From NCBI GenBank assembly GCA_964354975.1, contig CAYHBS010000004.1:3614-67613 (forward strand): 64,000 nt of DNA. Reading direction: 5' to 3'. The notes under the pieces are model-generated. The model did not search any database and was not told the origin of the DNA. It saw nothing but the letters and a program-made list of their open reading frames with translations. The translations under genes and the position numbers were made by a program. The number at the start of each line of letters is the position of its first letter. The first letter of the stretch is position 1. The DNA is from an uncultured Candidatus Saccharibacteria bacterium (GTDB lineage Bacteria > Patescibacteriota > Minisyncoccia > Ryanbacterales > HO2-45-13). Shown piece by piece: positions 20,182-51,263 of this stretch.

Positions 20182-20205
20182 CCCCTAATTCGCGCGAATT
20201 AGGGG
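20182..20205. promoter_or_regulatory. Perfect 24 bp palindrome ccccTAATTCGCGCGAATTAgggg (copy 1)
   Basis: Self-complementary sequence between the arsR-like stop and the dus start. Confidence 0.5.
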
Positions 20206-20240
20206 TATATCATACCACCGCGCTGTTTATAATTACATTT

Positions 20241-20585: not shown

Positions 20586-20607
20586 CCCTAATTCGCGCGA
20601 ATTAGGG
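20586..20607. promoter_or_regulatory. Perfect 22 bp palindrome CCCTAATTCGCGCGAATTAGGG (copy 2), likely ArsR-family operator
   Basis: Identical to copy 1. Lies about 70 bp upstream of the arsR-like start. Confidence 0.5.
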
Positions 20608-20734
20608 ACATAGTACACGGCGGAGGCGTACTATCAATCGCAGCAACGGAGGAAAAACGAGGATACCGCGATCTATGATAAAGAAACGTATCTGTGAGGA
20701 TGCGCTCTTGCCGACGTGCTCCCCCATATACTAC

Positions 20735-25870: not shown

Positions 25871-25902
25871 AAAAGGGGTAGCTGGATTCCGCTACCCCTT
25901 TT
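25871..25902. terminator. Bidirectional intrinsic terminator (aaaaggggtagc-tggattcc-gctacccctttt plus gttttttt) overlapping the RT stop codon
   Basis: 12 bp stem flanked by A-run and T-run. Confidence 0.65.
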
Positions 25903-26836
25903 GTTTTTTTCTCCTCCGCGCAGCTTTCCTCGCTACACGGTATGTATGCACTAGTCGTGTAAAGGTTTGATCGAAGGGTTCTTCCCGCATAATCCCAGAT
26001 ATGACGCCCATTCTTCCAGAAAGTTCAGAGAACCCTTCCCCAGTCTCTAGGAATTTTCTGAGAAGTTTTTTGGTCTTCCAGCGAAATTGTTGTGGAACAA
26101 AAATACGTCCTCCAAGTTCTAGTCCCACGCCATTGACCACTACTGGACCTTTCATCAAATCCCATACGTGCGTCTTTCGATGACTAATAGAAAATCCAGC
26201 GGATTCGATAATGGATCGAATGTTGCTCCGTTTTTTCTCTCCTATCACTTCTGCCGCAGAAAACACAAGATCATCGATATAGCGCGTATAGGTCATACCA
26301 TACCTCGCGACCACAGGGGCAAGCACTCGATCAAGTACTGCGCTCGCATAGATATTAAACAGGTCGGGCGATGCGGGGGCGCCAACTGCAAGTCCACCAG
26401 AGCATGATGCACAATAATTCTCTAGAAATGTGCGTGCCATCTCTACTTCGGTGTTTAGGGGGAGTTGTCCTTCCAATGAAAGTAGAATCTCCGCGAGCGT
26501 ATTGAGATTGATGGTATGATACGCATCACGCAAATCAAGGTGATAGATATATCGATTTTGACGATGACGCGCAACGTGTCGTGCCGGGTTAGCCCCTGGG
26601 CGCGCTCCCGTGGCAAACCGCAGATCGGCGGGTAGTGAACGTAAGTGAGAAATGAGGCGCTTGTGAAGTTGTCTCATCGATGTATTCGGAGCTTCGATAA
26701 GACGCTTTTTCCTCGTACCACTAAGTGGATTGATGTCGTTGTAAAGGAACCTCCGAAACTTCGGAGGTGTTTTTGTTCTGGGCAACAAATCTATCAGATA
26801 CATCTGAAACACCTCCTCTATCCTTGGTTTGGCCAC
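25892..26836 (-). CDS. Reverse transcriptase, retron-type RT domain only (314 aa, GTG start)
   Basis: RT motifs: KKRLIEAPNTSMRQL, NPARHV...YIYHLDLRDAYHTI (NAxxH/motif A-like), GLAVGAPASPDLFNIY, TYTRYIDDLVFS (YIDD), VVNGVGL (VTG-like). No maturase or endonuclease domains. Confidence 0.85.
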   Translation of the reverse strand: MAKPRIEEVFQMYLIDLLPRTKTPPKFRRFLYNDINPLSGTRKKRLIEAPNTSMRQLHKRLISHLRSLPADLRFATGARPGANPARHVARHRQNRYIYHLDLRDAYHTINLNTLAEILLSLEGQLPLNTEVEMARTFLENYCASCSGGLAVGAPASPDLFNIYASAVLDRVLAPVVARYGMTYTRYIDDLVFSAAEVIGEKKRSNIRSIIESAGFSISHRKTHVWDLMKGPVVVNGVGLELGGRIFVPQQFRWKTKKLLRKFLETGEGFSELSGRMGVISGIMREEPFDQTFTRLVHTYRVARKAARRRKKQKG

Positions 26837-27283
26837 ACTCTATCATACACGCGCAGCGAATGATACTTTTCAAGATTCGAGAGAATATCACTCCGCTTTG
26901 CAAATCCCGACGCCTCGGTTGGGGCATGTGTTTTGCAAATCAAAAACCGCCATACTGCGGTTTTTGAGTAAAACTTCTGGCTGCCATGGGTGGGCGCTCA
27001 TTGGCACCGAATAATCAGGGACATCAATACGTTAAATGTTGCTAATACAGAATAGAGCAGCTCTTTTTTGTAAATTGGGTCTCCTGCTAGTGGAAGTTGG
27101 AACTGCGCTTTATAACACAACATCCCTACTGATGGATTTTTTTGATTTACGTGTCACTATTACCTAGCCAACGTTTATATGGGTTTCTGCGGGTAAAATC
27201 TCTCAGGAATATTCCGTAGCTTACATAACCTCTATCTTTATACTATGCTAAAAATGTGATGAAGCTTCAATACATAAGCTTGA

Positions 27284-28522
27284 ATGAATAAGAAAAAAAA
27301 GGTGATGATCTTCGTTGACGGAGAATTCATCCCATCCTACAGTGGGGCGACAAATAGATTTCACTATTTATCTGACGCCCTTCAACGATATACAAATACA
27401 GAAGTTGTTGTCGTTGTGTCCGACCGTGGTTGGACAGACACAAAGCTAATTAGAAAAGAGCGATTTAGGACATATTTGGTTCGCTCTGACTTATTTAAAA
27501 ACATTGACTTTCTGTTCCATCTAGTAAACAGGGAGCAACCTCAGATACTACAATTTGCTAACCTTGAGCTTGCCGTTCAACTAGGCATCCCCTTATCAGT
27601 AATGGGTGGTCAACACTTGGTGTATGAGGCGCATTATGATGATTTGGAATTCGCTAAATCTCTTGGTGCACCCAAAAAACAATTAGATAGCGTAAGGGGT
27701 TTAATGCATCACTTCGGCATTTATTTTGATAAGATTATTTCCCTCAGTAAGGATGACCACCTTGTTAAATCAAGATTTGGGGTTAGCGCGTCTCGCATCG
27801 CTATAGTGCCGAGCGGAATCAGACTAGATGACTTTCCACATAGTTGTTTTAAAGCGACCTCAAAAAAAATAATATTTCTAGGGAATTATTATTATGCCGT
27901 CAATTTAGCGGCTCTGAAACTGATTAGGAATTCTGTTTATCCAAAATTATCTGAGAAAGGATATATTTTTTATATTATTGGTGACATTCCATCCAAGATA
28001 AAGAAATCACTTGAGAAAAAAAACTTCGTAATCGTCGGCAAACAAAGTACGCTAAATACATACTTCAGTAATTCATTGTGCGCCCTTTCACCCGTTGCTG
28101 CTGGGTCCGGGATGAGAATTAAGATACTTGACTATTTGAATGCGGGGCTACCTGTCATCACAACCAGCCAGGGATCGCGGGGGTTCCTAAATAGAAACTT
28201 ATTGATGATTGAGGATGACATTAATAAGTTTTCCGAAATTATAGAGCTCATTGCAAGGTCAACTTTCACCTCTAGATTATTATCTGAGGCAGGCAGAAGG
28301 TTTGTTAGAAAACATATGTCCTGGAGTGTGGTCGCACAAAGCATGTCTGAAGAGTACGATAAAATTCTCCATAAAAGGAGGGTTACAAAGATCAATGCCC
28401 TGAATAGAATAAGTCAGCTAACTGCTCGTGATCCCGCGTGGCTTAAAGAAGTCATCAAAAAGGGGCGTTTTCAGGGAGCGAAACCCCATCTTTCGAAAAA
28501 ATCATATATAGTACTAAATTGA
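27284..28522 (+). CDS. Glycosyltransferase family 1/4 (GT-B fold)
   Basis: C-terminal GT1 signature (AAGSGMRIKILDYLNAGLPVITT). 412 aa. Confidence 0.8.
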   Translation: MNKKKKVMIFVDGEFIPSYSGATNRFHYLSDALQRYTNTEVVVVVSDRGWTDTKLIRKERFRTYLVRSDLFKNIDFLFHLVNREQPQILQFANLELAVQLGIPLSVMGGQHLVYEAHYDDLEFAKSLGAPKKQLDSVRGLMHHFGIYFDKIISLSKDDHLVKSRFGVSASRIAIVPSGIRLDDFPHSCFKATSKKIIFLGNYYYAVNLAALKLIRNSVYPKLSEKGYIFYIIGDIPSKIKKSLEKKNFVIVGKQSTLNTYFSNSLCALSPVAAGSGMRIKILDYLNAGLPVITTSQGSRGFLNRNLLMIEDDINKFSEIIELIARSTFTSRLLSEAGRRFVRKHMSWSVVAQSMSEEYDKILHKRRVTKINALNRISQLTARDPAWLKEVIKKGRFQGAKPHLSKKSYIVLN

Positions 28523-29109
28523 TGAAATCAATCATCGCCCTTGAAGGGCTCCCCTGCTCAGGGAAAACTGAATTTTTTGAGAAGTTCAAAACCAGTGGGG
28601 TGGAAATGTTTTTCATTCCTGAGCTCTACATGGATGCCCGCGACAAAGTGAATGCTAAAGATGCCCGAGCATTATATACTGAGGCTGAGAAGGATAAGTT
28701 TAAAAAAGTGCCTAAAAATGCACATACCATTTTGTGTGATCGATCATATATTTCAACACTCGGATTTTCCTATGCTTATGGGAAAACATTTTGGGAATAC
28801 AGCACATATGACTACAACACTAAGTTTTTTTCTACAAATCACGATGCAATCCTAGTCCCAACGCATGTTATTGTATTTCGAATACCACCCGAAGAAAGTT
28901 TGAGAAGAAGCACAGAGAAGGGCAGAACTGAAGACGTAGCATATTGGCAGAATATTCAGTTTCTGAGTAATTTTGCAGCCTTTTACGAGTCAGATTTATT
29001 AAAAACGCTTATTAAGAGTAAAATAATATTTGTAGACGCATTAAATATCCATCCTGAGCAAGTTTACGGTCAAGTCGATCAATCGATTAGACAATATATC
29101 AGGAAGTGA
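28519..29109 (+). CDS. P-loop nucleoside/nucleotide kinase, deoxynucleoside kinase/thymidylate kinase-like
   Basis: IALEGLPCSGKT P-loop, a DRS motif (LCDRSYIS) and an Arg-rich lid (LRRSTEKGRTED). Confidence 0.55.
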   Translation: MMKSIIALEGLPCSGKTEFFEKFKTSGVEMFFIPELYMDARDKVNAKDARALYTEAEKDKFKKVPKNAHTILCDRSYISTLGFSYAYGKTFWEYSTYDYNTKFFSTNHDAILVPTHVIVFRIPPEESLRRSTEKGRTEDVAYWQNIQFLSNFAAFYESDLLKTLIKSKIIFVDALNIHPEQVYGQVDQSIRQYIRK

Positions 29110-29137
29110 TTATTACGATGTGAGCGGGTCATAATAA

Positions 29138-29992
29138 GTGTGTAGTAAAAATATGGAATCATTTAAAATTGTCCGCCATCTCGAAGAGTCTCATCAAGAG
29201 GAGATTAATCGTGACGCCGATATAGACCCAGAAGAAATTGCATTGCTAAAGACTTACTACTTGCCTGCGATTTTAGAAAATATACGATCAGGAAAATATG
29301 ACAGTGCAACGGTAATCTGCAGCGACAAGTTGCGCTCAAGCCGGACTGCTGACATCCTTCGGGAAGAACTGCAGCGTTATGGAGATATCCCCGTCAATCA
29401 GGAAACTGACGATCGGATCTCTGCTGAAATCCATGGGCGATATAAAACTGGAACAAATTCTGATAATCCTTTAATTGAACGTGCTAAAATGATTTTTTTA
29501 CATGAGGCATTCGAAAAGCACAATGTTTGGTATAGACACGGATCCGCTAGTAATGATGCGGGTGAAATTCTGTATCCTGAGTTGAATGAAATATTTGAAT
29601 CCCCTGGGGAAAATCAAATTGAATTAAATATTCGCATGTATCGATTTGTTTTGGATTTACTCCAGAGGATTGAAGAAAATCCGACAAATCTCTTCATCTT
29701 ATCTGCTCATCATGTAGTGATGTCCACCTTACTTGCACTTCAGCGCATTTCCGAAAAAGGTGGGCCTTTTATTAACATCCGGTACCACCCTCAGGGCTTA
29801 TTGTATGCGGATCAAAATATGGAAACTGAGGAAATGATCGGGGGTTGGGATAATTTTTACGATTATTACAAATCTCGAAACTATATTTTTGATATTGATG
29901 TTCAAAAACTCAAACAGATAAGAGAGATAATCCAGGCTGAGCTGGATCTTTGCCTAGCGAGCTACACTCAACACTACGGAAATAGACTCTAG
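29138..29992 (+). CDS. Hypothetical protein, possible histidine-phosphatase (phosphoglycerate-mutase-like) fold
   Basis: N-terminal VRH and C-terminal LSAHHV motifs weakly resemble the RHG/SHG catalytic motifs. Confidence 0.3.
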   Translation: MCSKNMESFKIVRHLEESHQEEINRDADIDPEEIALLKTYYLPAILENIRSGKYDSATVICSDKLRSSRTADILREELQRYGDIPVNQETDDRISAEIHGRYKTGTNSDNPLIERAKMIFLHEAFEKHNVWYRHGSASNDAGEILYPELNEIFESPGENQIELNIRMYRFVLDLLQRIEENPTNLFILSAHHVVMSTLLALQRISEKGGPFINIRYHPQGLLYADQNMETEEMIGGWDNFYDYYKSRNYIFDIDVQKLKQIREIIQAELDLCLASYTQHYGNRL

Positions 29993-31665
29993 TCGTTTCC
30001 CTTAATGATCTCGGATTTGAGTAGTTTCCCATTGTAGATTAAACCCTTGGTATAATTTATTTTTTCGTAAAGACTTATCGTATCCTCGAGACTATTTGTC
30101 AGTGGCATGCCCTTAAAATTCAGCGATGTGTTGAGCAATAGTGCAATTCCGGTTTTATGGAAAAACAAACTGATTAAGTCACACAGAAATGGATTATCTT
30201 CCTTTGTGATAGTCTGAACTCGCGCACTCCCGTCTACATGTAGAGCCCCTGGTATTTTTGATTGAACTTCGCTCTTAACTTCATACTTGTAAAGCATAAA
30301 AGGAGATTTTGCAGGTCCAGTAAAGTATTCGTTTAACTTACTTTCCAGCACAATCGGAGCGAGCGGCCTGTAGGATTCGCGCTCTTTGATTCTCTCACTT
30401 AACAAGTCTCTTACTTTTTTACTATCCGGTCTTGCTATGAATGACCTGTTGCCTAGCGCACGTGGCCCTACTTCTGATCGTCCATTATGCACAAGTAATA
30501 TGCCATCAGACAGCAATATTTCGATGCATTTCTCAATTGTCTCCGATGAATATTCATATACATGCACCCCCTCGCCCAAGTAGGGAAAACGTGCACCTAT
30601 TCGTCCCCCTAAGACATTGTTTATCAAAATTGACAATGACCCAAGCGATTGACCTGAATCGTCGCAACAGGGCGCCACAAAGTGAATTTTGTCTTTATAA
30701 AATCCTGCGACGCGAGAATTAAGTTCGAGATTTAAACCCACTCCTCCAGACATAATAATTCCATCAACATTTTTTGCGTGTTGATCAATCACTGAAGAAA
30801 TGTCATCCATCTTGTGATTTACAAAGAATTCCTGGACAGTCGCTGCAAAATCTGTTGCTGAATTGGTTGGCCTTAGTGCTTGACCCTTTAATATCCTTAA
30901 TGGACTACTCTCAAAAATCTGGTAAATATCCTCGTACTTTGCAATTTCTATTTCTCGGTAAATCTGCTCCAAGACATCATAATACTCGACACGCACTTTA
31001 CCCAGTCCAGCTAGTGCCATCATTTTGCCATCTGGTGGATTGTGACTATGAAGCTCCGCTCCGTAAAGAAACATAGCACACGCGCCATAAGTTTTCCCGG
31101 AGATGTGCCCGGCTAAATCAATATTTAGCCTAGTTATAGAATTCCCTCTTCCTAAATAGTACGAGTTACACTCATTCATTTTTGTCAGTGGGTCCACGTC
31201 CCCACCACCATCAGAAGTGACAATAAGGACATTTTCAATTCCTGTGGTTAGATATATCCCCGCATGAGATAAGTGATGATTCGTAATCAAAACGTTACGC
31301 CTTAAACCAAAAAAATTAATTTCTTTCCAAAAGGCTGTCTTTAAGGTTTGCTCACCATAATCAATAATGTCTGCTTCCTGCAAAAAGGGATTGTTAAAGG
31401 TGGTCATAGACCAGTACTTCACACTTTCTATTGACTCTCCTAGTATATTGAGGCCGTATCTCACAAGGTATTCCATTTCATCCACAGCGCAAGCTTTTTT
31501 CTTTTCGCGAAACACTCTTTCAGCCTCTAATACCAAACAGATGTTTCTGCCAAACGCAAAAGATGCGGATGAGTCATGAAAATTAAACGAAATACTGCAG
31601 AACAACTCGCCGTCAATATTGGACGCGTGGGACAGTCCAAATTTTTCTGTACCGCTGTTATCCAA
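29989..31665 (-). CDS. Carbamoyltransferase (NodU/CmcH family)
   Basis: N-terminal LSHASNIDG...FHDSSAS and HLSHAGIY blocks typical of NodU/CmcH O-carbamoyltransferases. 558 aa. Confidence 0.8.
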   Translation of the reverse strand: MDNSGTEKFGLSHASNIDGELFCSISFNFHDSSASFAFGRNICLVLEAERVFREKKKACAVDEMEYLVRYGLNILGESIESVKYWSMTTFNNPFLQEADIIDYGEQTLKTAFWKEINFFGLRRNVLITNHHLSHAGIYLTTGIENVLIVTSDGGGDVDPLTKMNECNSYYLGRGNSITRLNIDLAGHISGKTYGACAMFLYGAELHSHNPPDGKMMALAGLGKVRVEYYDVLEQIYREIEIAKYEDIYQIFESSPLRILKGQALRPTNSATDFAATVQEFFVNHKMDDISSVIDQHAKNVDGIIMSGGVGLNLELNSRVAGFYKDKIHFVAPCCDDSGQSLGSLSILINNVLGGRIGARFPYLGEGVHVYEYSSETIEKCIEILLSDGILLVHNGRSEVGPRALGNRSFIARPDSKKVRDLLSERIKERESYRPLAPIVLESKLNEYFTGPAKSPFMLYKYEVKSEVQSKIPGALHVDGSARVQTITKEDNPFLCDLISLFFHKTGIALLLNTSLNFKGMPLTNSLEDTISLYEKINYTKGLIYNGKLLKSEIIKGND

Positions 31666-31688
31666 AAAAATATTTAATTGATCCTTTT

Positions 31689-32153
31689 TTAGCTCACGCC
31701 AATAAATGGATCCTCTGATTCAGCAAAAAACTTTATGTTCTCCCAGAACGTGTTCTTCAGCCTCTTTGGAAATACCTTCAAATCCTGCAAGTCGTCCTTT
31801 GTGAACCACTTTGCCTCTTCTACTGCCCCATTTGGATCAAGATCAATATGTGCTTCATTTAACGCTTGCTCATGAGACATTTTTGCCAACCAGAATGTTT
31901 CAAGACAAATATTTTCAATCTCTCCCTCGATACCGTGAAATTCTTGGAGATAAAGAAGTTTTAGTATTTCGACGTGCATGCCCGTCTCCTCAAGAACTTC
32001 TCGCTTCGCACATTCAACAATGTTTTCAATCTCATATTCCCAACTCCCCCCGGGGGCATACCAAAACTTAGTGCCCTTATTTCTAACTAGCAAAATCTTG
32101 TTCTCGTCAGGCTTGTAAGTTATAACACGAGCTATTGGTTTAATTTTCTTCAT
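31689..32153 (-). CDS. NUDIX hydrolase
   Basis: Nudix box GGSWEYEIENIVECAKREVLEETG. Confidence 0.8.
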   Translation of the reverse strand: MKKIKPIARVITYKPDENKILLVRNKGTKFWYAPGGSWEYEIENIVECAKREVLEETGMHVEILKLLYLQEFHGIEGEIENICLETFWLAKMSHEQALNEAHIDLDPNGAVEEAKWFTKDDLQDLKVFPKRLKNTFWENIKFFAESEDPFIGVS

Positions 32154-32310
32154 AATTAACGGCCGTGAAGCCTTAGTGATTAATATAGAAACTTATCTTC
32201 TTAGTATGCTATCTCAAATACATGCTTTCTGCATCTATTCTTGCTCAAAGAACGTTTGAGAATACATATTAGCTCGCTTCCCCAATGGATGGTAGAACTG
32301 CGATGAGCTC

Positions 32311-32352
32311 CACAATCAATAATAAAGAAATAGTCTCGCACATGCGAGGCTA
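32311..32352. repeat. Long near-perfect hairpin (aataaagaaatagtctcgca / tgcgagGctatttctttatt)
   Basis: About 20 bp stem with one bulge, immediately left of the direct-repeat copy. Confidence 0.5.
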
Positions 32353-32361
32353 TTTCTTTAT

Positions 32362-32383
32362 TTTGTTGCGGGACCGGGATTTG
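32362..32383. repeat. Direct repeat copy A, tttgttgcgggaccgggatttg (22 bp perfect, with about 50 bp of imperfect extension)
   Basis: Identical 22-mer at 37315-37336. Confidence 0.6.
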
Positions 32384-32553
32384 ATTGGAACCAAGTCTTC
32401 GGGCACATACGGGAAATCGCTATATTCAGTAAAGAAGTGCTCATGCCCGCGTGAAGGGGTGAGGGTGCAGATTTGACGGTATGGGTATTTAAAAAGAATG
32501 CTATTGATAGGCATATAGCATTCTCCTTTAAAGCTCTATCATTCAAATCGTGT

Positions 32554-32958
32554 TCACTGTGGGTATTTCCTGAAACAGTCTGATTTATTTTGCTGAAGCT
32601 GTGCGTCATTCTTATCATGCGCATCAGTAAATGCCGCCGCCCCCACACAGGTGCCACCGCCATCTACTTTACAATCTTCATACATTCCAACTAACTGTCT
32701 CCCCCATTCCTGCCAGTCAATTTCCGCGTTAGTTATGCAAGTATTCAATAATTGTTTAGCCTTCTCTTCAGTACGTGACTCCGTGAATGATTTATTAATT
32801 TGCTCCTGTCTTTCCTGCTCGATTTTTATTAGTTGCTGCTTTTCAATAGACCTTTGCTTGTTTACTTCACTTGCGAAGTAAAAACCGCCCAAAATAATAC
32901 TCGCGACAATAATCGTGACTGGTAATGACAGGTTATTAAATCTTGCGAAGATATCCAA
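32554..32958 (-). CDS. Secreted/membrane-anchored Cys-rich protein (DUF1311/LprI-like, tentative)
   Basis: N-terminal TM and a C-terminal domain with four Cys. Confidence 0.35.
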   Translation of the reverse strand: MDIFARFNNLSLPVTIIVASIILGGFYFASEVNKQRSIEKQQLIKIEQERQEQINKSFTESRTEEKAKQLLNTCITNAEIDWQEWGRQLVGMYEDCKVDGGGTCVGAAAFTDAHDKNDAQLQQNKSDCFRKYPQ

Positions 32959-32963
32959 ATTTT

Positions 32964-33950
32964 TTAGTTATCTTCAAATAAGCTCCCTGCAATCCAATCG
33001 TCGGTTCCGGTTGCTGTTCTGTTTAGTCCTCCACTGACCGTAGCGTGGGGTCCCCAGGATAAATTACCGTTCCCACCAGTTACTGATGAGCCTCCGCTAC
33101 GAGCTTCATTGAATACTCCGCCGCAAACGGCAGCAGAGCCCCCACTGGCAAGATTATCATTTCCTCCGGCAACCGACGCATAATCTGCGGTTGTTTTGTT
33201 TCTCAATCCTCCGCTAATAGTTGAGCTGTTTCCAATAACATTATTTCCTTCTCCGCCAGACACCGATGCATATACACCTGTAGTAGAATTATATCTTCCG
33301 GCTCCAATCCACGACATTAAACCATTGGCAGAATTTCTCCATCCGCCCGTGATAGAGGAAAGCTCTCCAACAGCGTGGTTTTCACTACCACCAACAATTG
33401 TTGAGTTCGCACCGACCAATTGGTTTTGTCGACCAGTAGTAAAGCCGCCATAGCTGATATATTCATGCTCCGGCCCAACAACAAGATTGTGCGAACCGTC
33501 TCGAGAAAATAGGCCGGTGCTTTGCTCATTGTAACCTATAATTAAGTTTCCTAAACCATTCTTTGTTGCCGTACTTCCAGCGCCATTTGTAAGGTGTATG
33601 TTGCATCCTTCAAAATACACATCATTACCATCAACTCTCACACAGGGGATGGATGTTCCGGCAATACCTTGTGGTCCTTGCTCTCCTTGTGAGCCCGCTT
33701 CACCTTGAGGGCCTTGCGCCCCTGTTGCCCCCTGAATATTCCAGACCACGAGCTTTTCTCCCTCTCTGCAAACCGTACGTCTAAAGCCGTCACCTATCAT
33801 CTGCATCGTTCCGTCTCTTTTTACACATGCAGCAAGAGTTTCTCCGCCCACTTGCCCATAAGTTTGAGCAGCAAACATGAGAATTAAGATAACAATACCC
33901 CCGGCAACAAATGAGGGCATATTGATTTGAGAATATTTTGAATAGTTCAT
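32964..33950 (-). CDS. Collagen-like triple-helix repeat protein with C-terminal SGG/NG-repeat beta-helix (phage tail-fibre-like)
   Basis: G-x-y run (GATGAQGPQGEAGSQGEQGPQGIAGT). Repeated xSGGxxN units. N-terminal signal/TM. Confidence 0.6.
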   Translation of the reverse strand: MNYSKYSQINMPSFVAGGIVILILMFAAQTYGQVGGETLAACVKRDGTMQMIGDGFRRTVCREGEKLVVWNIQGATGAQGPQGEAGSQGEQGPQGIAGTSIPCVRVDGNDVYFEGCNIHLTNGAGSTATKNGLGNLIIGYNEQSTGLFSRDGSHNLVVGPEHEYISYGGFTTGRQNQLVGANSTIVGGSENHAVGELSSITGGWRNSANGLMSWIGAGRYNSTTGVYASVSGGEGNNVIGNSSTISGGLRNKTTADYASVAGGNDNLASGGSAAVCGGVFNEARSGGSSVTGGNGNLSWGPHATVSGGLNRTATGTDDWIAGSLFEDN

Positions 33951-34607
33951 GATAGTTTTGATATTAACTAATAATTTTTGATAATTTTACCTCGGCAACA
34001 CAAAACCCACCGCTAGGCGATGGCTTGCGCCACCTACCACTCTTTCGAGCGGTAACCACTGCTGGTGCTCCTAAACGATGGGTTTAGTAGCCAGCAGTGG
34101 TTTTTTGCCATGCCACGAGAAAGGTTGTGGTTTAGGCACACAATACATGTATCTATTTAGTTGTACATCACAATCGTATACTTGCGCTACATACCTGTAA
34201 AGAGTGGGACTAATTGTTAAGCGTATTTATTTCCTCTTGATTATTGGACAAGATTATGCTAAGTTAAAAATAGAAAGTACTTAAGAAAATTATTTTTCCT
34301 GCACAAACGTTCTCGACTGTAATCTACGTATAGCTTGATGCACTCCGAGGGCCAAAGTGACAATATCCCTGAAATATGGGAGGCCATGTTTTCGGCCAGG
34401 CTTCAGTTCAATGCGTGTTATCACTTGGGGAACGATGGAAAAATTTATATTTTTGTGATTACTTGGCGAGATGAATTGACGGGCACCAATCGGTGATACC
34501 CGCGAATCGCGACTAGATGAGTATGTGCAATGCACTCATTTGTGAGGCGTTGCTTTGTTATTCGTCACATCCCGTCAGAGAGTCACAACGAAGCAACGGC
34601 ATCAGAA

Positions 34608-34877
34608 ATGGTGCCGTTATTCGTTTTTCTACTCCTCTTAATGCTCACAATTGCAGAATGTAAGGAAATATTGGGAGAGGATGTGTCATCAATATCTGAT
34701 GATGAAATTTTAGTTGTTCGTGATGCATTATATGCGCTGGCAGAGCTTGCTATAGATAAACAGTCGAATACTAACCACTTTGATTTTCATGCTGGTTTTG
34801 GGCAAAAGGACGGCATCCCCCCGCCCAAAACCGACATGAGAACCGGGAGATGCCATGACCCAAAACCAGGAGAATAA
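34608..34877 (+). CDS. Hypothetical exported or lipoprotein-like protein
   Basis: MVPLFVFLLLLMLTIAEC signal-like N-terminus. Start trimmed from the ORF at 34530. Confidence 0.3.
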   Translation: MVPLFVFLLLLMLTIAECKEILGEDVSSISDDEILVVRDALYALAELAIDKQSNTNHFDFHAGFGQKDGIPPPKTDMRTGRCHDPKPGE

Positions 34878-35394
34878 AAATTGCGCTAAAGCGATAAAAA
34901 TACCATATATTATGATTCCTACAGCAGTTGCAATGCGCAAAGATATTTCCCAAGGAGCGAAATTAACATACGGCATTATTTACACGCGACAGAATGGGAC
35001 GAAACCAGCCTACGCATCCCAAAAAAATATGGCTTTTCATATCGGCGTCTCTGAACGAACTATTCGAAAATATTTACGGGCATTAATAGCTCTGAATTTG
35101 ATATATCAGAAGCGCTTTGGACTAACGAGAACCAATAGATACTGGGTAAAGGACCGCACGAAACCGTCCTCTCATGATAGGAACTCTACTTCGGCTCTAC
35201 ATAGGTATGAACCTTCCGGTCATAGTAATAGTAAGGGAAATAGTAAAGCAGTAAGTCAGCTGCCCTTACATAAATCAGAAGGAACATGGAGGGAATACCG
35301 TATTCATAGACACCCTGATGGTAATATCAAGATTTGTGTTGACAGCGAATGGAAGATATTCGCGGGTGACGAACGCGACATTATATGGAAATAA
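34855..35394 (+). CDS. Winged-helix HTH protein (phage replication-organizer/DnaD-like N-terminal domain, tentative)
   Basis: IKIPYIMIPTAV...FHIGVSERTIRKYLRALIALNLI HTH pattern. Confidence 0.45.
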   Translation: MTQNQENKNCAKAIKIPYIMIPTAVAMRKDISQGAKLTYGIIYTRQNGTKPAYASQKNMAFHIGVSERTIRKYLRALIALNLIYQKRFGLTRTNRYWVKDRTKPSSHDRNSTSALHRYEPSGHSNSKGNSKAVSQLPLHKSEGTWREYRIHRHPDGNIKICVDSEWKIFAGDERDIIWK

Positions 35395-35786
35395 GAATGA
35401 GCAAGACACACATCGGGCCAGAAAACTCACAAAAAAAATCCCAACTTACAGTTAAACAGAAAGAGTGGGTTTCCGAAACCATTGCCACAAAAAATCCAAC
35501 GGAAGCCGCCTATCGAGCCTATGATGTTAAAGACCGACATAATGCATCAGTTATTGCTTCTGAAAACCTGTTAAAACCTTACTTACGAGAGGCATTAAAT
35601 GAAATGCTGGAAAACCATAATCTGCATTTAAATGACACCGTGCAAGAACATAAATGGCTCATCGCACAACGTGAGCATATTGCTACAAAGTTCGATGCAA
35701 TTAAAGAACACTACGAATTGCTCGGTCTACACACAAAGGACAGAGTCAATACAGGAATAAATATTGCATTAGTGGTCAGAAAATGA
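35385..35786 (+). CDS. Phage terminase small subunit-like protein
   Basis: LTVKQKEWVSETIATKNPTEAAYRAYDVKD resembles the TerS (Terminase_2) N-terminal helix pattern. Confidence 0.45.
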   Translation: MEIRMSKTHIGPENSQKKSQLTVKQKEWVSETIATKNPTEAAYRAYDVKDRHNASVIASENLLKPYLREALNEMLENHNLHLNDTVQEHKWLIAQREHIATKFDAIKEHYELLGLHTKDRVNTGINIALVVRK

Positions 35787-35811
35787 AACAGATGTAATGA
35801 TAAAATAATAT

Positions 35812-37404
35812 ATGCAGACTCCAAAAGGAATCATCTATTGCAGGGTGTCTTCTCAAGACCAGGTATCTGGGACTTCTTTAGATAGCCAACAAAAAGCATG
35901 TTTGGAATATGCAGAAACAAAAGGTATTAAAGTTGAGAAAATATTTGTCGAAAAAGGAGAGTCAGCCACTGCCGCAAATAGAGCGGAACTGATAAAAGCA
36001 TTGAACTTTTGTGGAGACAGAAAGGGTCAGATTTCGGCATTTATTGTTTGGAAGATTGATAGATTTGCGCGAAATACAACTGACCACTTTGGCTTACAGG
36101 CACAATTAATTAAATTTGGGACATCATTACATTCTGTTACCGAACCTATCGATAAAACTCCTATCGGAAAGATGATGGAAACCATGCTAGCCGGATATGC
36201 TCAGCTTGAAAATGATATTAGGCGGCAAAGATGCGAGGGGGGTATGCAGCGCAAAATTGCAGAAGGCATTCGACCGTGGAAACCACCACTGGGCTATGCC
36301 GTTCCACCAAAGACTGAGCGGAGGAAAACCAAGGCAGATGTGCGTGACCCCGAGCGTTTTCTGCTTGTACAAAAAACATTAAAGGCATATGCCACAGGGG
36401 CTTATTCCATAGCTAATTTAACCCAGGAAGCGACTAAACGGGGTCTTCGCACTCGTACTGGGAAGCCTATGCGCATTCAGCTTCTAGAGCGACTATTAAC
36501 AGATAAGTATTATGCGGGAATATTAACTGACCCCTGGACCAAGAAAGAGTACCCCGGACTACATGAACCAATGATAACCCTTGAGGAACACCAGCACATC
36601 CAACTCGTAAAATCTGGCCTATCCAACAATGCAATTAATACACGAACCTATGCTCATCCAGATTTTCCACTTCGAGGGCTTTTGATTTGTGTGTGTGGCG
36701 TGAAATTGACCGCTGGTTGGACGAAAGGAAGAAACAACAAATACCCCTATTATCACTGTAAACAAAAAGGATGCGTGCACTTTGGACATGCAATTCCTAA
36801 ACATAGGCTGGAGGAAAAGTTTCTTATTTTTCTCAAGCGCATTACCCCTCAGGAGCATTTCATAAAACTTTTTGAAACCATTGTGCTAGATGTATGGCGA
36901 AACAAACATCAATCACACACACAACAACGCATGCATTATGAAGCGGAAATCAAAAGATTAAATTCGCAACGAGAGCGATATATTGAAATGCGCGCAAATG
37001 GAGAGATTAACCGCGAGGAATTTAAAATCTATAGTGAACGCTTAGAAAACCAGATAACGGGTCTTACTATTTCGAGAAACGAAGAGAATATTGAAGAGTT
37101 AGACATGGGGACATTACTCTCCTATACAACACAATTCATGCGTAATTTATCTCGGCAGTGGCAGGATATGCAGGATATAAAACAAAAACAGCGGCTCCAG
37201 AAATTGGTTCTACCGGAAGGGATTATGTTTGATAAATCCACCGGAGAGCTTGGAACCGCTGTTTTGTCGCCTGTTTTCAGGATGAATCAGGTATTTGAGG
37301 ATGGCGAATCCGACTTTGTTGCGGGACCGGGATTTGCACCCGGGTCTGGAGGTTCGCACATTCCCAATATTTCTAATGGGGCTGGACTATACCATCTTCC
37401 ATAA
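35812..37404 (+). CDS. Large serine recombinase (resolvase/invertase N-terminal catalytic domain plus recombinase and zinc-ribbon/coiled-coil domains)
   Basis: YCRVSSQDQ catalytic Ser motif, DRFARN, recombinase domain and a Cys cluster. 530 aa. Confidence 0.9.
   Translation: MQTPKGIIYCRVSSQDQVSGTSLDSQQKACLEYAETKGIKVEKIFVEKGESATAANRAELIKALNFCGDRKGQISAFIVWKIDRFARNTTDHFGLQAQLIKFGTSLHSVTEPIDKTPIGKMMETMLAGYAQLENDIRRQRCEGGMQRKIAEGIRPWKPPLGYAVPPKTERRKTKADVRDPERFLLVQKTLKAYATGAYSIANLTQEATKRGLRTRTGKPMRIQLLERLLTDKYYAGILTDPWTKKEYPGLHEPMITLEEHQHIQLVKSGLSNNAINTRTYAHPDFPLRGLLICVCGVKLTAGWTKGRNNKYPYYHCKQKGCVHFGHAIPKHRLEEKFLIFLKRITPQEHFIKLFETIVLDVWRNKHQSHTQQRMHYEAEIKRLNSQRERYIEMRANGEINREEFKIYSERLENQITGLTISRNEENIEELDMGTLLSYTTQFMRNLSRQWQDMQDIKQKQRLQKLVLPEGIMFDKSTGELGTAVLSPVFRMNQVFEDGESDFVAGPGFAPGSGGSHIPNISNGAGLYHLP
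37315..37336. repeat. Direct repeat copy B, tttgttgcgggaccgggatttg, inside the 3' end of the serine recombinase gene
   Basis: Identical to 32362-32383. Confidence 0.6.
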
Positions 37405-37733
37405 TTGGAAGTCCTCATTATAGTCTCTGAACCTTTCCTATCTATCAGATAAGACTTGGCTGCTGATTGTCGAATCTCTGTTTTTTTTTGCCATCACGCC
37501 CACTCTTTCGAATCACGTTGTGGCAAACAAAGCTCTCACGAGTTTCCAGCAGTTTCGAAGATTTTTCCGTCGCACATTACTGAGCGAGGTCACAATTATT
37601 TATGAGCCTCCCGAGGTACTACTCCTCTATCCCGCGGCTTACAGATTACCACAATATTACAACTGTGACAATCTTGGCACATACAAAATAACTGTGAATA
37701 TTATCGAACCAACGATATGATATAATATATATT

Positions 37734-38438
37734 ATGGCTAAAACACTGGCGCGCTCACGTGCAATACAATTACGCATAGAAGGAAAAAGTGTCAAGGAAA
37801 TTGCGCGATTGTTACAGGTTTCTACAAGCTCCGTAAGTATCTGGTGCCGCGACATTCAACTCTCATCTACTCAGTCTGAATTCCTTCGGTTAAGGCAAAT
37901 TGCATCAGGTTTCAGGGGTCGCCAAATCGGTGCCGACGTAAATAGAAAGAAGAAGCAATTGCGCATCGAAAAAGCACGCATTTACGCAGCAACGCTGTGG
38001 AAACAACATGGAGATGATCCTCTGTTTTTATTGGGCATTGGCTTGTATTGGGGGGAGGGAAGCAAAACTGATAAGTTGAGTTTTTCCAATTCGGATCCTG
38101 CTATGGTGCGATTTATGATGCTTTGGTTACAAAAATACCTCGGCGTATCGAAAAGTGATTTTGTCGCACGCGTCTATATAAACAATATTCACCATAAGCG
38201 CGCTACGGTGGTTCAACAATATTGGATACACTATCTCACATTGCCGGAAAGACAATTTCGATCTACGTGCTATATTTATTCAGTCCCTAAAAAACGGTAC
38301 GACAATCATGATATATATTTTGGTATACTTGCATTACGTGTTCGCCGTAGTACAGTATTGAAATATATTGTGCTAGCATTGCTCGCACGAGTAAAGGATG
38401 TCGGGGTAGCTCAGTTGGTTAGAGCGGAGCACTCATAA
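37734..38438 (+). CDS. HTH plus single-motif LAGLIDADG-like endonuclease (tentative)
   Basis: N-terminal HTH (GKSVKEIARLLQVSTSSVSIWCR). LLGIGLYWGEGSK resembles the LAGLIDADG motif. The 3' end overlaps the tRNA. Confidence 0.4.
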   Translation: MAKTLARSRAIQLRIEGKSVKEIARLLQVSTSSVSIWCRDIQLSSTQSEFLRLRQIASGFRGRQIGADVNRKKKQLRIEKARIYAATLWKQHGDDPLFLLGIGLYWGEGSKTDKLSFSNSDPAMVRFMMLWLQKYLGVSKSDFVARVYINNIHHKRATVVQQYWIHYLTLPERQFRSTCYIYSVPKKRYDNHDIYFGILALRVRRSTVLKYIVLALLARVKDVGVAQLVRAEHS

Positions 38439-38473
38439 AGCTCAGGTCGGCAGTTCGATCCTGCCCCCCGGCA
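38400..38473 (+). tRNA. tRNA with CAT anticodon (Met, or Ile2 if modified)
   Basis: Manual fold: acceptor gtcgggg/ccccggc, D-arm gctc-agttggtta-gagc, anticodon loop ctCATaa, T-arm ggcag-ttcgatc-ctgcc, discriminator A. One A-A mispair at 31-39. No encoded CCA. Confidence 0.75.
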
Positions 38474-38501
38474 CAAGTATAAAAAAGCCATTTGGCGTTT
38501 T

Positions 38502-39577: not shown

Positions 39578-40270
39578 ATGGGTATGCGAATCCGCACTCA
39601 TCGGGTCGTGAACAAAGACTTCTTTAAAGAGTGGGCCGCTCCGATGGCATATGTGCTTGGATTTTTCATGGCGGATGGATACATGACACATAATTCCCGA
39701 GGCGCACACTTTCTCTGTATGCAAATTACTGACAGGAATCTGCTATACAAGCTCCGCGCCGCAATGCGATCCACGCACAAAGTGAGCGCGAGAACCACGC
39801 ACGACGCCGGGAAACCACTGTACCGATTACAAATCGGCAGCAAAGAAATGTGTGATGATTTGCGCAAACTCGGCATCAGAAATGGGAAAACGCACAATAT
39901 GCGCTTACCAAATGTACCACAAAAATATGTTTCGGATTTTGTTCGCGGGTACTTTGATGGAGACGGAAACGTTTGGGTTGGACTTGTCCACAAGGAGCGT
40001 CAACGATCATTACTTGCTATCAACACCGTATTCACTTCGTGCTCCGGACATTTTCTGCGCGTCCTCAAAAAAACGCTGAAAGAGTATGAAATCCACGGCC
40101 ATATGAGCAACGCAAACTCGTACTGTAGGCTCTCCTACAGCATTCATGCGTCGCTAAAGTTACACGGATTGATGTATGGAAAGTATCATGGTAATCTGTT
40201 CCTGCGCCGAAAACGAAAAGTATTTGAGCGATATGTTCGAAACCGAAATGCGGCTGTAGCTCAACGGTAG
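39578..40270 (+). CDS. LAGLIDADG family homing endonuclease (double-motif)
   Basis: Motif 1 YVLGFFMADGYM and motif 2 VRGYFDGDGNVWV. A -10-like gatataat lies upstream. The 3' end overlaps the tRNA-Asp. Confidence 0.8.
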   Translation: MGMRIRTHRVVNKDFFKEWAAPMAYVLGFFMADGYMTHNSRGAHFLCMQITDRNLLYKLRAAMRSTHKVSARTTHDAGKPLYRLQIGSKEMCDDLRKLGIRNGKTHNMRLPNVPQKYVSDFVRGYFDGDGNVWVGLVHKERQRSLLAINTVFTSCSGHFLRVLKKTLKEYEIHGHMSNANSYCRLSYSIHASLKLHGLMYGKYHGNLFLRRKRKVFERYVRNRNAAVAQR

Positions 40271-40321
40271 AGCGCTCGCCTGTCACGTGAGAGGTCGTGG
40301 GGTCAGCACCCATCAGCCGCG
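40250..40321 (+). tRNA. tRNA-Asp(GTC)-like with non-canonical T-loop (GTCAGCA)
   Basis: Perfect 7 bp acceptor gcggctg/cagccgc, canonical D-arm tagctcaacggtagagc, anticodon loop ctGTCac. The T-stem needs a G-U pair and the T-loop lacks T54/A58. Confidence 0.5.
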
Positions 40322-40490
40322 CAGTATAAAAAAACCGCCGAAGGGCGCGTTTTTTTGTTTTGCGGTAGAGGAAGTGATCTGCATCACTTCCGTATGGGTG
40401 CTGACGGACGGAGCTGTGTATTAACACCAGTTAAAACCAGCGAGTCGGGGTAGCGAACATTTCGAGCGAGTGCGAGAAATGATTCGTGAC

Positions 40491-48955: not shown

Positions 48956-49140
48956 ATTTTTGTAATTGATAATGATAAACCACCTAATAATATAAATAGA
49001 GTTTGTTATATATTGCTCGACCAGTTAGCTTTGTGCCCCTTTATTATACTTCCTTACGAAATAAGGAAAAAATGGGGTGTGGACAACGCCGGCCCCGCAT
49101 GTGGGGGCGAAATGGCTAATATCTCATTGACCTAATGCCT

Positions 49141-49340
49141 AAAATCATTAAATCACAAGAACATTAAATCATGAGATTACGAGAACATGAAAACACGAGA
49201 ACATGAAAACACGAGAACATGAAAACACGAGAACATGAAAACACGAGAACATTAATTCATAAAATCACAAGAACAGTACATCACGAGATCATGAAAACAT
49301 TAAATCATGAAAACACGAGATCATAGAAACAGGTTCGGCC
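49141..49340. repeat. Tandem repeat region: 4 perfect copies of acgagaacatgaaaac (49179-49242) plus degenerate atcacaagaacat/catgaaaac-type flanks
   Basis: Direct reading of the sequence. Related motifs recur at 49897-49918 (inverted) and 51164-51195. Confidence 0.7.
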
Positions 49341-49370
49341 TGCTACCAGCGGTAAGCCATGTGTATCAGT

Positions 49371-51142: not shown

Positions 51143-51263
51143 GGGGAAGAATTTCTAATTTCTAAATCATTAAATCACAAGAACATGAAAACATGGGAGC
51201 GGGGAGGGGGTTGAAGGCCACACATCTCATGGGGCAATTAATCATATCAATCACCTGCGGTGA

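Follow-up and report, generated by a model that had tools for sequence, protein, structure and literature searches.

A small mobile element in the initiator tRNA gene of a groundwater Patescibacteria bacterium, probably integrated by the large serine recombinase that it encodes

We analysed 64,000 nucleotides of contig CAYHBS010000004.1 (assembly GCA_964354975.1, positions 3,614 to 67,613 of the forward strand) from an uncultured Candidatus Saccharibacteria bacterium; this whole stretch is called the window, and coordinates refer to it unless a related locus (L number) is named. A first-pass annotation, made from the letters of the window, had singled out a segment of about 5 kb between two direct repeats. 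We find that this segment is very probably a small integrative element, and that the large serine recombinase (LSR) which it encodes has placed it at the 3′ end of the single, intron-containing initiator tRNA-Met gene. At the sequence level, the attachment site of the free element (attP) falls within the final ~30 codons of the recombinase ORF, and integration exchanges the C-terminal ~22 residues of the enzyme. The recombinase belongs to a large undescribed Patescibacteria family with attP inside the integrase gene.

The segment is delimited by the 22-mer TTTGTTGCGGGACCGGGATTTG, which occurs exactly twice in the 64 kb, at 32362–32383 (attL) and 37315–37336 (attR), both times on the plus strand. 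No third copy was present in the window at up to three mismatches, and none of 100 shuffles contained two matches to the 22-mer. The direct repeat of the first-pass annotation is therefore exact, and with two copies it is not a common sequence in the window. Its supposed continuation as an imperfect match for about 30 bp more dissolved into chance-level similarity, with 8 identities in 30 positions and 9.7% of shuffles scoring equally. A search of GTDB genomes for the 22-mer gave matches in two Patescibacteria metagenome-assembled genomes (MAGs) only, neither of them syntenic. Together with the source samples and the names of homologs, these two matches point to a Patescibacteria/Parcubacteria bacterium as host. 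Positions 32384–37314 lie between the repeats, and the original tRNA 3′ end and its terminator hairpin are displaced by 4,953 bp. The GC content of the element is 42.6%, against 48–49% in the surrounding chromosome.

The right repeat, read on the minus strand, is CAAATCCCGGTCCCGCAACAAA, the T-arm and acceptor 3′ end of a tRNA. The corresponding gene (37319–37636, minus strand) comprises a 5′ exon (37636–37602), an intron of 247 nt (37601–37355) and a 3′ exon (37354–37319); its joined exons form a 71-nt tRNA, or 74 nt with the unencoded CCA, which ARAGORN called tRNA-Met(CAU). The spliced tRNA has a C1xA72 mismatch (1:72) and an A11:U24 pair, both of them features of initiator tRNAs. The intron was recognized by Rfam as a group I intron (37363–37611, minus strand; 76.6 bits, gathering score 50). 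Because of this intron, the gene was missed by default ARAGORN and by the Rfam tRNA model. With introns allowed, ARAGORN reported the gene at 37318–37636 with a 247-nt intron, and its call of Arg(CCG) was discarded, the splice point being off by 1–2 nt. We set the splice point by aligning the exons to intron-less homologs, in which GGCTCAT is directly followed by AACC, and by the group I rules of a U before the 5′ splice site and a G as last intron base, which gives Met(CAU).

Since the right repeat is the 3′ end of this tRNA, the initiator tRNA gene is the target of the element, which has entered at its 3′ end. The attR copy is the 3′ end of the functional tRNA and covers the 3′ strand of the T-loop and T-stem, the acceptor 3′ strand, the discriminator and 3 nt beyond; attL is the displaced tRNA 3′ end. 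The tRNA is kept intact, as the element brings an identical copy of its last 22 nt. The Islander-type signature of an intact tRNA gene, a displaced 3′ fragment and an integrase gene adjoining the tDNA is present. No transfer-messenger RNA (tmRNA) gene was found in the window. The reading of the segment as repeat-bounded was correct in the first-pass annotation, but the identity of the right repeat as the 3′ end of an intron-containing initiator tRNA had been missed.

Introns at this position are not peculiar to the window: group I introns of 210–287 nt occur in the initiator tRNA gene of many Patescibacteria (for example L004, 7088–7297), and are thus shown to be frequent there. Two insertion points were seen, one after CAU (window, L039, L045) and one between A35 and U36 (L023, L029, L036, UBA2135). 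Where the tRNA has an intron, the integrase ORF continues into it. Several contigs corresponding to the window (L117, L118, L121 and L122) end at window positions 37586–37619, inside the tRNA intron or 5′ exon, and L119 has a 2-nt deletion in the intron; a possible reason is that the intron is polymorphic, or that the genome holds a further, repeated copy of it.

We searched public assemblies for an empty site by means of exact copies of the flanking NUDIX and HTH_23 proteins. Most contigs from the 0.1 µm fractions of Hainich groundwater had the occupied arrangement. One contig from the same aquifer, Hain_H51_01um_R1_6762 (L111), carries an empty attachment site (attB), with the NUDIX gene, the hairpin and the 22-mer in this order, followed by CACCCGGGTCTGGAGGTTCGCACATTCCCAATA; the last 33 nt after the 22-mer are those of the tRNA exon/intron side, not of the element side. 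This empty site makes the 4,953-bp segment a discrete insertion, polymorphic for presence and absence, with these exact ends. The existence of a genome without the segment backs the claim of the first-pass annotation that a discrete, repeat-bounded integrative element is moved by a large serine recombinase. It also identifies the hairpin at 32321–32362 (minus strand; arms of 20 nt, 95% complementary), which adjoins the left repeat, as probably the intrinsic terminator of the tRNA-fMet gene, displaced, because in L111 it lies directly 3′ of the tRNA end. Other contigs break at the repeat itself: L112 and L113 end at its last base, L116 begins with its first, and the start of L120 is 3 nt into the right copy. 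These breaks are the branching of the assembly graph expected with both alleles present. As far as the assemblies tell, occupied and empty alleles coexist in the aquifer population.

The recombinase ORF (35812–37404, plus strand) encodes 530 aa in its integrated form and has the domains of an LSR, with Pfam matches to Resolvase (2e-32), Recombinase (6e-6) and Zn_ribbon_recom (2e-5). S13, R84/R87 and four Cys were invariant across 39 homologs, and the catalytic and zinc residues are intact in the window copy. The AlphaFold2 model of a homolog contains a long helical hairpin (347–416). CcrB was the best NCBIfam match, at 79.7 bits against a cut-off of 900, and a match to XisF was also sub-threshold. 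Pfam and PHROG scans revealed only one Resolvase-domain protein in the element ORFs, and none of the scanned ORFs matched the tyrosine recombinases (Phage_integrase). The right repeat starts at codon 502 and is followed by 22 codons; its final 29 codons read attR, the tRNA 3′ exon and 50 nt of intron sequence in antisense. The overlap between the recombinase 3′ end and the attachment site, which the first-pass annotation had pointed out, is therefore real, with LSR domains present and the right repeat inside the ORF; what it had missed is that the flank of attL encodes an alternative C-terminal tail.

This alternative tail emerged from the alignment of homologs, in which two classes of sequence follow a conserved S-D-L-V-A. 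Class (i) tails, G-x-G-[IF]-[EA]-P.., are the antisense translation of the tRNA T-arm, and often end in L-stop, TTA TGA being the complement of the anticodon loop CUCAUAA. Class (ii) tails read ..V-[GR]-x-x-W-N-Q-I-[IV]-x-[DE]-[IV]-[RK]-x-[IL]... Among 117 near-full-length homolog clusters, 74 had tRNA-antisense tails and 29 had class (ii) tails, and most of the other 14 looked tRNA-derived. The window encodes the integrated form in place, and at 32383–32454 (plus strand), in frame with the left repeat, it retains a coding remnant of the free-form (attP-form) tail, DWNQVFGHIREIAIFSKEVLMPA, followed by a stop codon. Rejoining the window ends at the repeat yields a 531-aa protein that ends in DFVAGPGF-DWNQVFGHIREIAIFSKEVLMPA, a class (ii) tail. 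The free-form enzyme thus ends in a conserved amphipathic helix (..DWNQVFGHIREIAIF..), the integrated form in a Gly/Pro-rich peptide (..APGSGGSHIPNISNGAGLYHLP) dictated by the antisense tRNA exon and intron. In a class (ii) protein (P0095), AlphaFold2 modelled residues 507–524 as a helix with a predicted local distance difference test score (pLDDT) of about 90.

We then built a hidden Markov model (HMM) solely from the class (ii) tails of other loci and searched it against the six-frame translation of the 64 kb. Its best window match was at attL (32362–32439, E 7.5e-6). In 22 tRNA-integrated loci, or about 17 once near-identical contigs were paired, the same model detected remnants on the strand of the recombinase, 5.1–11.4 kb upstream of it; none was detected on the opposite strand. 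Joining the ends restored the tail motif in the window, in L090 (tRNA-Glu clade; 12-nt repeat, 5.15 kb), in L043 and in L056, and in each of them the attL remnant keeps its frame and stop codon. The repeats first obtained as longest common substrings in L023 and L045 were rejected, being extra tRNA-fragment copies ~200 nt outside the true tail-coding junction.

Class (ii) genes carry the attachment site uninterrupted, and 11 such attP sequences, when aligned, revealed a core, yTTGTTGCG, within an imperfect inverted repeat (GTCYGGAC .. GTCRGACG) whose symmetry centre falls inside the core. A core flanked by an imperfect inverted repeat is the expected layout of serine-integrase sites. The symmetry was visible only in the 11-site alignment, a scan for dyad symmetry on the single attP/attB of the window being uninformative. 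In relatives with an alignable core, the cores shared by attL and attR (10–22 nt) contain or end at TTGTTGC, which places the crossover at the end of the tRNA acceptor stem and the discriminator, probably within their antisense, TTTGTTGC. Beyond ~40 nt from the centre, the amphipathic pattern I-x-x-[DE]-[IV]-[RK]-x-[IL] is kept and third codon positions vary; the pattern was seen across clades 31–60% identical.

The family is large: 408 recombinase homologs reached E<=1e-20 among the candidates scored, most of them 46–60% identical. In 38 of 80 metagenome loci, the recombinase ORF overlaps an antisense tRNA, as called by ARAGORN, by 40–161 nt. The targets were tRNA-Met(CAU) at 24 loci, several with introns of 219–283 nt (recombinase identity to the window 47–59%), tRNA-Glu at nine loci and tRNA-Asn at five (identity 31–36% for both). 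Recombinases with an intact helical tail and an intact attP core also lie within large contigs, namely L103 (195 kb), L106/L107 (615 kb, a Limisphaerales MAG), L055 and L061, with type I restriction-modification, Dnd, helicase, T4CP and relaxase genes as neighbours. In these contigs the module is present outside Patescibacteria as well, and apparently unintegrated within larger replicons. Class (ii) genes in contigs of 36–615 kb could belong to plasmids, to larger elements carrying the module or to a sister group using another site.

The tail remnants also leave traces of earlier events. Stacked tail remnants or tRNA-fragment copies lie within 0.5–2 kb at the left ends of L045 (1049–3116) and L026/L027 (238–893), which indicates repeated integration and decay at the same tRNA. 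In the window, a second, degenerate free-form tail remnant, WVGAHWHRIIRDINTL, is found at 26987–27035 (plus strand), just 3′ of a hairpin (26943–26966), and the GC content falls from 0.49 to 0.39 exactly there. The stretch that follows (27036–32361) encodes a GT4 glycosyltransferase, two unknowns, a carbamoyltransferase and the NUDIX protein, and it was present in all contigs seen, including the one with the empty site. The interval ~27.0–32.36 kb is probably an older tandem island that lost its recombinase, with the second remnant as its left end. A reverse-transcriptase (RVT_1) gene (25892–26836, minus strand) lies just left of the older island; in related contigs the RVT_1 gene is followed by a CreD-like gene, small 75-aa paralogs and a GIY-YIG gene.

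Two further components accompany the recombinase in its relatives. The first-pass annotation had described the gene content largely correctly, as the Resolvase, Recombinase and Zn_ribbon domains, an N-terminal Terminase_2 match, HTH_36 and a collagen repeat were all found, but it had missed an RNA inside the element. This is LOOT (Rfam RF03000; 34019–34138, minus strand, 87 bits), which together with a terminator-like hairpin and U-run (34007–34023) occupies 34007–34138 at the head of the leftward cargo genes. LOOT was present in 12 of the 15 further tRNA-fMet loci scanned (L023, L027, L029, L034, L035, L036, L038, L039, L041, L044, L049 and L056), or 13 of 16 with the window; the single tRNA-Glu locus and both class (ii) loci included in the scan lacked it. 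Relative to the recombinase it is on the other strand in 11 of those 12 loci, L035 being the exception, and in the loci examined it starts off the leftward cargo genes 1.7–4.7 kb upstream of the recombinase start. A short hairpin and U-run are conserved 3′ of LOOT in the eight copies examined, and LOOT looks like a discrete small RNA of ~130–150 nt or an attenuating leader. We found no literature tying LOOT to any element, and the main text of Weinberg 2017 is silent on it.

The second component is an acidic protein of 78 aa (MLxxxECKxxLG..LSDEEILxIRDxLxELAEIA; 34641–34877, plus strand), encoded from Met38 of a 115-codon ORF. It lies upstream of the recombinase, usually directly adjoining it, in more than 25 loci of both clades, and it is a candidate recombination directionality factor by inference only. 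The ORF had been taken for lipoprotein-like; it is really this conserved recombinase partner, starting at the internal Met38.

The remaining genes of the window element are less widely shared. An HTH_36 winged-helix protein (34855–35394, plus strand; 160 aa in the version of the gene callers) resembles replication-initiator and DnaD-like phage proteins solely in their N-terminal part. Next to it lies a small-terminase-like (TerS-like) protein of 133 aa (35385–35786, plus strand), composed of a Terminase_2-type DNA-binding domain and helices. It matched Terminase_2 (E 7e-8, profile positions 1–57 of 141) and the PHROG 51 terminase small subunit (E 8e-13); its residues 10–94 matched the SF6 small terminase 3ZQP by sequence (E 3e-4), and its predicted fold matched the SF6 small terminase 4ZC3 (TM 0.82) and NV1 TerS. 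The C-terminal third was poorly modelled, and the oligomerisation core was not confidently modelled. By sequence and fold, the DNA-binding domain is genuinely that of a small terminase, and to this extent the earlier call of a TerS-like protein holds. The gene occurs in few relatives (about three: the window, L079 and, weakly, L023).

The leftward cargo of the window consists of a 134-aa protein (32554–32958, minus strand) that has no family match, begins with a hydrophobic segment, resembles a coiled coil in its middle and contains Cys near its C-terminus, and a 328-aa protein (32964–33950, minus strand) with an N-terminal hydrophobic segment, a collagen G-X-Y repeat (74–98) and a Gly/Asn-rich repetitive C-terminal part. 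The label tail-fibre-like, previously given to the latter, goes back to the 26-residue collagen repeat, and the PHROG "tail fiber" match is that same repeat. Cargo differs from element to element and includes type III restriction-modification, methyltransferases, a MerR regulator and membrane or secreted proteins; most cargo proteins of relatives lack a Pfam match. BLASTP among six bounded elements found no shared cargo beyond the recombinase, except for one weak pair of ~60-aa ORFs of L023 and L043 (33% identity, E 1e-6). Larger relatives encode a Prim-Pol, PriCT_1 and AAA_25 primase-helicase, or AAA_25 alone, and the Pfam and PHROG scans of the window element found no primase-helicase, only the HTH_36 winged-helix protein. 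The same scans of all element ORFs found no capsid, portal, large terminase or tail genes. An inovirus, an idea prompted by Roux 2019, was dropped, as no element ORF matched the morphogenesis ATPase family.

The element would excise by recombination between attL and attR, and the 78-aa partner may help excision as a directionality factor. The tail swap and the convergent transcription of the tRNA may together tie integrase activity or stability to the state of integration. The window copy would be a reduced member of a 5–11 kb family whose fuller members may replicate with Prim-Pol/helicase, and its leftward cargo, two putative surface or secreted proteins, would be headed by the LOOT small RNA of the family. 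Several points weigh against this account. The attP junction of this element (..GAATCCGAC-repeat-ATTGGAACC..) was absent from IMG/VR and from all fetched loci, the 90% protein cluster contained no attP-form protein, and no contig among the loci was circular. Excision is read from the empty allele, which could also be the ancestral state. No tRNA was found within 10 kb of some helical-tail copies in the 36–615 kb contigs, and the intact-attP copies in large contigs mean that an intact tail is no proof of a small free circle. A functional importance of the tail exchange is something that we infer, and the role of the partner as a directionality factor is a guess. In relative L043, an exact attP-type junction at the contig start could be that of a tandem copy or of a circle.

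The idea that the repeat arose by chance or was duplicated locally, and that the segment is ordinary chromosome or what is left of a dead prophage, draws on the failure to find a circular junction in IMG/VR and the fetched loci; we regard it as extremely improbable, given that no shuffle matched, that an empty-site allele has exactly these ends, that the same architecture recurs in dozens of independent loci and that phage structural genes are lacking. A phage satellite, in which the TerS-like protein would redirect the packaging of a helper to the excised 5-kb circle in the manner of phage-inducible chromosomal islands (PICIs) or P4, is a better-founded alternative, yet an unlikely one. The small-terminase matches by family, sequence and fold fit it; L023, a second member of the family, pairs a TerS-like HTH protein with an AAA_25 helicase, and the Prim-Pol/helicase of larger relatives resembles satellite replication modules. 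However, the confident resemblance to TerS is limited to the DNA-binding domain and the beginning of the core, and the window copy has no gene for capsid redirection, for a repressor or for a primase. Its 5 kb fall far short of known satellites, and its host has no known helper phage. Cargo and accessory genes vary freely among relatives, of which about three have the TerS-like gene, and IMG/VR held only two close relatives, neither of them a phage genome with structural genes beside the recombinase. The satellite-like or PICI-like label of the first-pass annotation thus keeps its TerS-type DNA-binding domain and is unproven otherwise, with primase-helicase, capsid-related gene, identified repressor and known helper all missing.

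We put each of two other proposals just short of even probability. One sees in the window copy a reduced form of the 8–11 kb Prim-Pol/helicase elements that is no longer autonomous: it would still integrate and excise with its own recombinase but not replicate, and would persist as a chromosomal passenger or be mobilized by transformation or in trans. The Prim-Pol, PriCT and AAA_25 genes missing from the window element are present in relatives that share its recombinase, partner, LOOT and target; the window has only a winged-helix fragment of replication-initiator type, and element sizes span 5.1–11.4 kb. On the other hand, the recombinase, partner and LOOT are intact and the insertion is polymorphic in the population, making the copy more than a fossil, and the HTH_36 protein might recruit host replication. 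This proposal is compatible with an element integrated by its own LSR and does not compete with it. According to the other, the C-terminal swap is functionless: attP would overlap a dispensable end of the integrase in a compact genome, and conservation of the tail would reflect a constraint on the attP arm at the DNA level. The integrated-form tails are antisense tRNA and change with the tRNA or intron concerned, and an LSR attP half-site can extend to the codons that are most conserved in the tail (TGG AAC CAA). For DsiB, McMurdie et al. 2011 proposed something comparably trivial, namely that the C-terminus is translated variably and with low efficiency (PMC3146451). Yet the amphipathic pattern is kept beyond the ~40 nt from the centre despite varying third codon positions and clades only 31–60% identical, AlphaFold2 predicts a confident helix, and the attL remnant stays in frame with its stop codon in the window, L090, L043 and L056. 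A more far-reaching reading, which we consider possible but on balance doubtful, is that attP lies deliberately inside the integrase gene throughout this Patescibacteria-wide family, that the enzyme senses its own state through an integration-dependent switch, and that LOOT is the regulatory or maintenance RNA of the family. The free form with its C-terminal amphipathic helix would then be integration-competent, whereas the integrated form, with its tRNA-antisense peptide and opposed by convergent initiator-tRNA transcription, would be silenced or switched to partner-dependent excision.

The closest precedent is provided by the Dehalococcoides ssrA islands (DsiB), and the staphylococcal cassette chromosome (SCC) with its ccr recombinases is a looser one. 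DsiB islands have a CcrB-like serine recombinase of ~540 aa at the island edge, a ~20-bp repeat of the tmRNA 3′ end and tandem islands (PMC3146451), and dsiB always overlaps the attachment site and is maybe fully functional only on the circle (McMurdie et al. 2011, PMC3146451). Both systems insert into the 3′ end of a gene for a small structured RNA, close to its T-loop and acceptor region, and both build up tandem islands. In both, the integrase ORF crosses the attachment site so that its stop codon lies outside the island and depends on the integration state, and the cargo is variable and free of conjugation genes. The present family differs in using a true tRNA (initiator Met, or Glu or Asn in the sister clade) instead of the tmRNA ssrA, in lacking a second small serine recombinase (DsiA) and a RecF/ParB/Mom module, and in its Patescibacteria hosts. 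Compared by description, it also differs in its free-form tail, conserved and restored on joining where DsiB ends are described as divergent, and in having LOOT and the 78-aa partner in its module. In SCC, too, an LSR (CcrA/B, CcrC) puts a cargo cassette at the 3′ end of a conserved gene and leaves direct repeats. It is nevertheless the looser of the two: CcrB scores 80 bits against a cut-off of 900, the gene that SCC enters, rlmH, encodes a protein, and the ccr genes are internal and do not span the attachment site.

Other systems share single features. The tyrosine-integrase islands found by Islander in tRNA and tmRNA genes show the same order of intact tDNA, island, displaced tDNA 3′ fragment and integrase adjoining the tDNA, but the recombinase here is of the serine family. 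As in elements with SSV1-type archaeal integrases and in the mycobacteriophages BPs and Brujita with their integration-dependent immunity, attP lies within a coding gene of the element and integration alters its product. The int gene of SSV1 is split on integration, and the repressor of BPs-like phages reportedly loses its C-terminal degradation tag on integration (Broussard et al. 2013). Unlike in these tyrosine-recombinase systems, the gene here is not inactivated, only its last ~22 residues being exchanged. With phage satellites such as PICIs, including Staphylococcus aureus pathogenicity islands (SaPIs), and P4, the element shares an integrase at one end, a small size, a TerS-like protein and, in relatives, a primase-helicase, but the window copy is without primase-helicase, repressor or capsid-size genes and, at 5 kb, is smaller. 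The phiRSM prophages target tRNA-Ser. As cited in PMC7192596, phiRSM-type prophages likewise use a serine-family recombinase to integrate at the 3′ end of a tRNA gene; phiRSM, however, is a filamentous phage with a small resolvase-like enzyme that has no recombinase or zinc-ribbon domains. In the TIGER survey (2020), the use of tRNA genes by serine integrases was represented by only 14 of 297 candidates, termed unreported and with proof requested.

Targeting of a tRNA and an integrase gene spanning the attachment site are both rare and little documented for serine integrases. These enzymes are major tools of genome engineering and were long thought to avoid tRNA genes; the clade described here offers several hundred natural enzymes with precisely mappable attP/attB pairs in conserved tRNA 3′ ends. 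The conserved tail exchange provides a testable hypothesis on the control of directionality or stability in serine integrases, one that was raised and left open for DsiB in 2011. If true, it would mean an integration-dependent switch built into a serine integrase, together with the first assigned context for LOOT. An Rfam family of unknown function is in any case placed on a defined genetic element, and a first concrete picture is obtained of a common small mobile element of the candidate phyla radiation bacteria, whose mobilome is poorly known. The surface-protein cargo could matter for episymbiosis.

Several minor observations concern the surroundings of the tRNA. The HTH_23 ORF beside the initiator tRNA (37734–38438, plus strand) runs into a tRNA-Met of elongator or Ile2-type CAU (38400–38474), and an HTH_23 protein occupies the same position in L028, L029 and L039. 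A LAGLIDADG-like ORF (39578–40270) ends within tRNA-Asp (40250–40322). In L003 (6648–6830; Patescibacteria MAG REEB69), the tRNA-fMet 3′ end is present as two direct copies at a distance of ~140 nt, each followed by its own terminator hairpin, and no intact tRNA was detected beside them; the double 3′ end is possibly the scar of a past integration and excision. In L004 (7340–7760; UBA2135), an inverted copy of the tRNA-fMet 3′ end, with ~24 nt of its downstream sequence, is found beyond a run of 352 N, which is probably an artefact of assembly or scaffolding. Elsewhere in the window, an array with a period of 8 nt and ~29 units (CATGAAAA / CACGAGAA) occupies 49114–49345, with a related 35-nt copy 1.9 kb away (51164–51198), and a perfect 22-nt palindrome, CCCTAATTCGCGCGAATTAGGG, occurs in two copies 403 nt apart (20183–20209 and 20586–20612).

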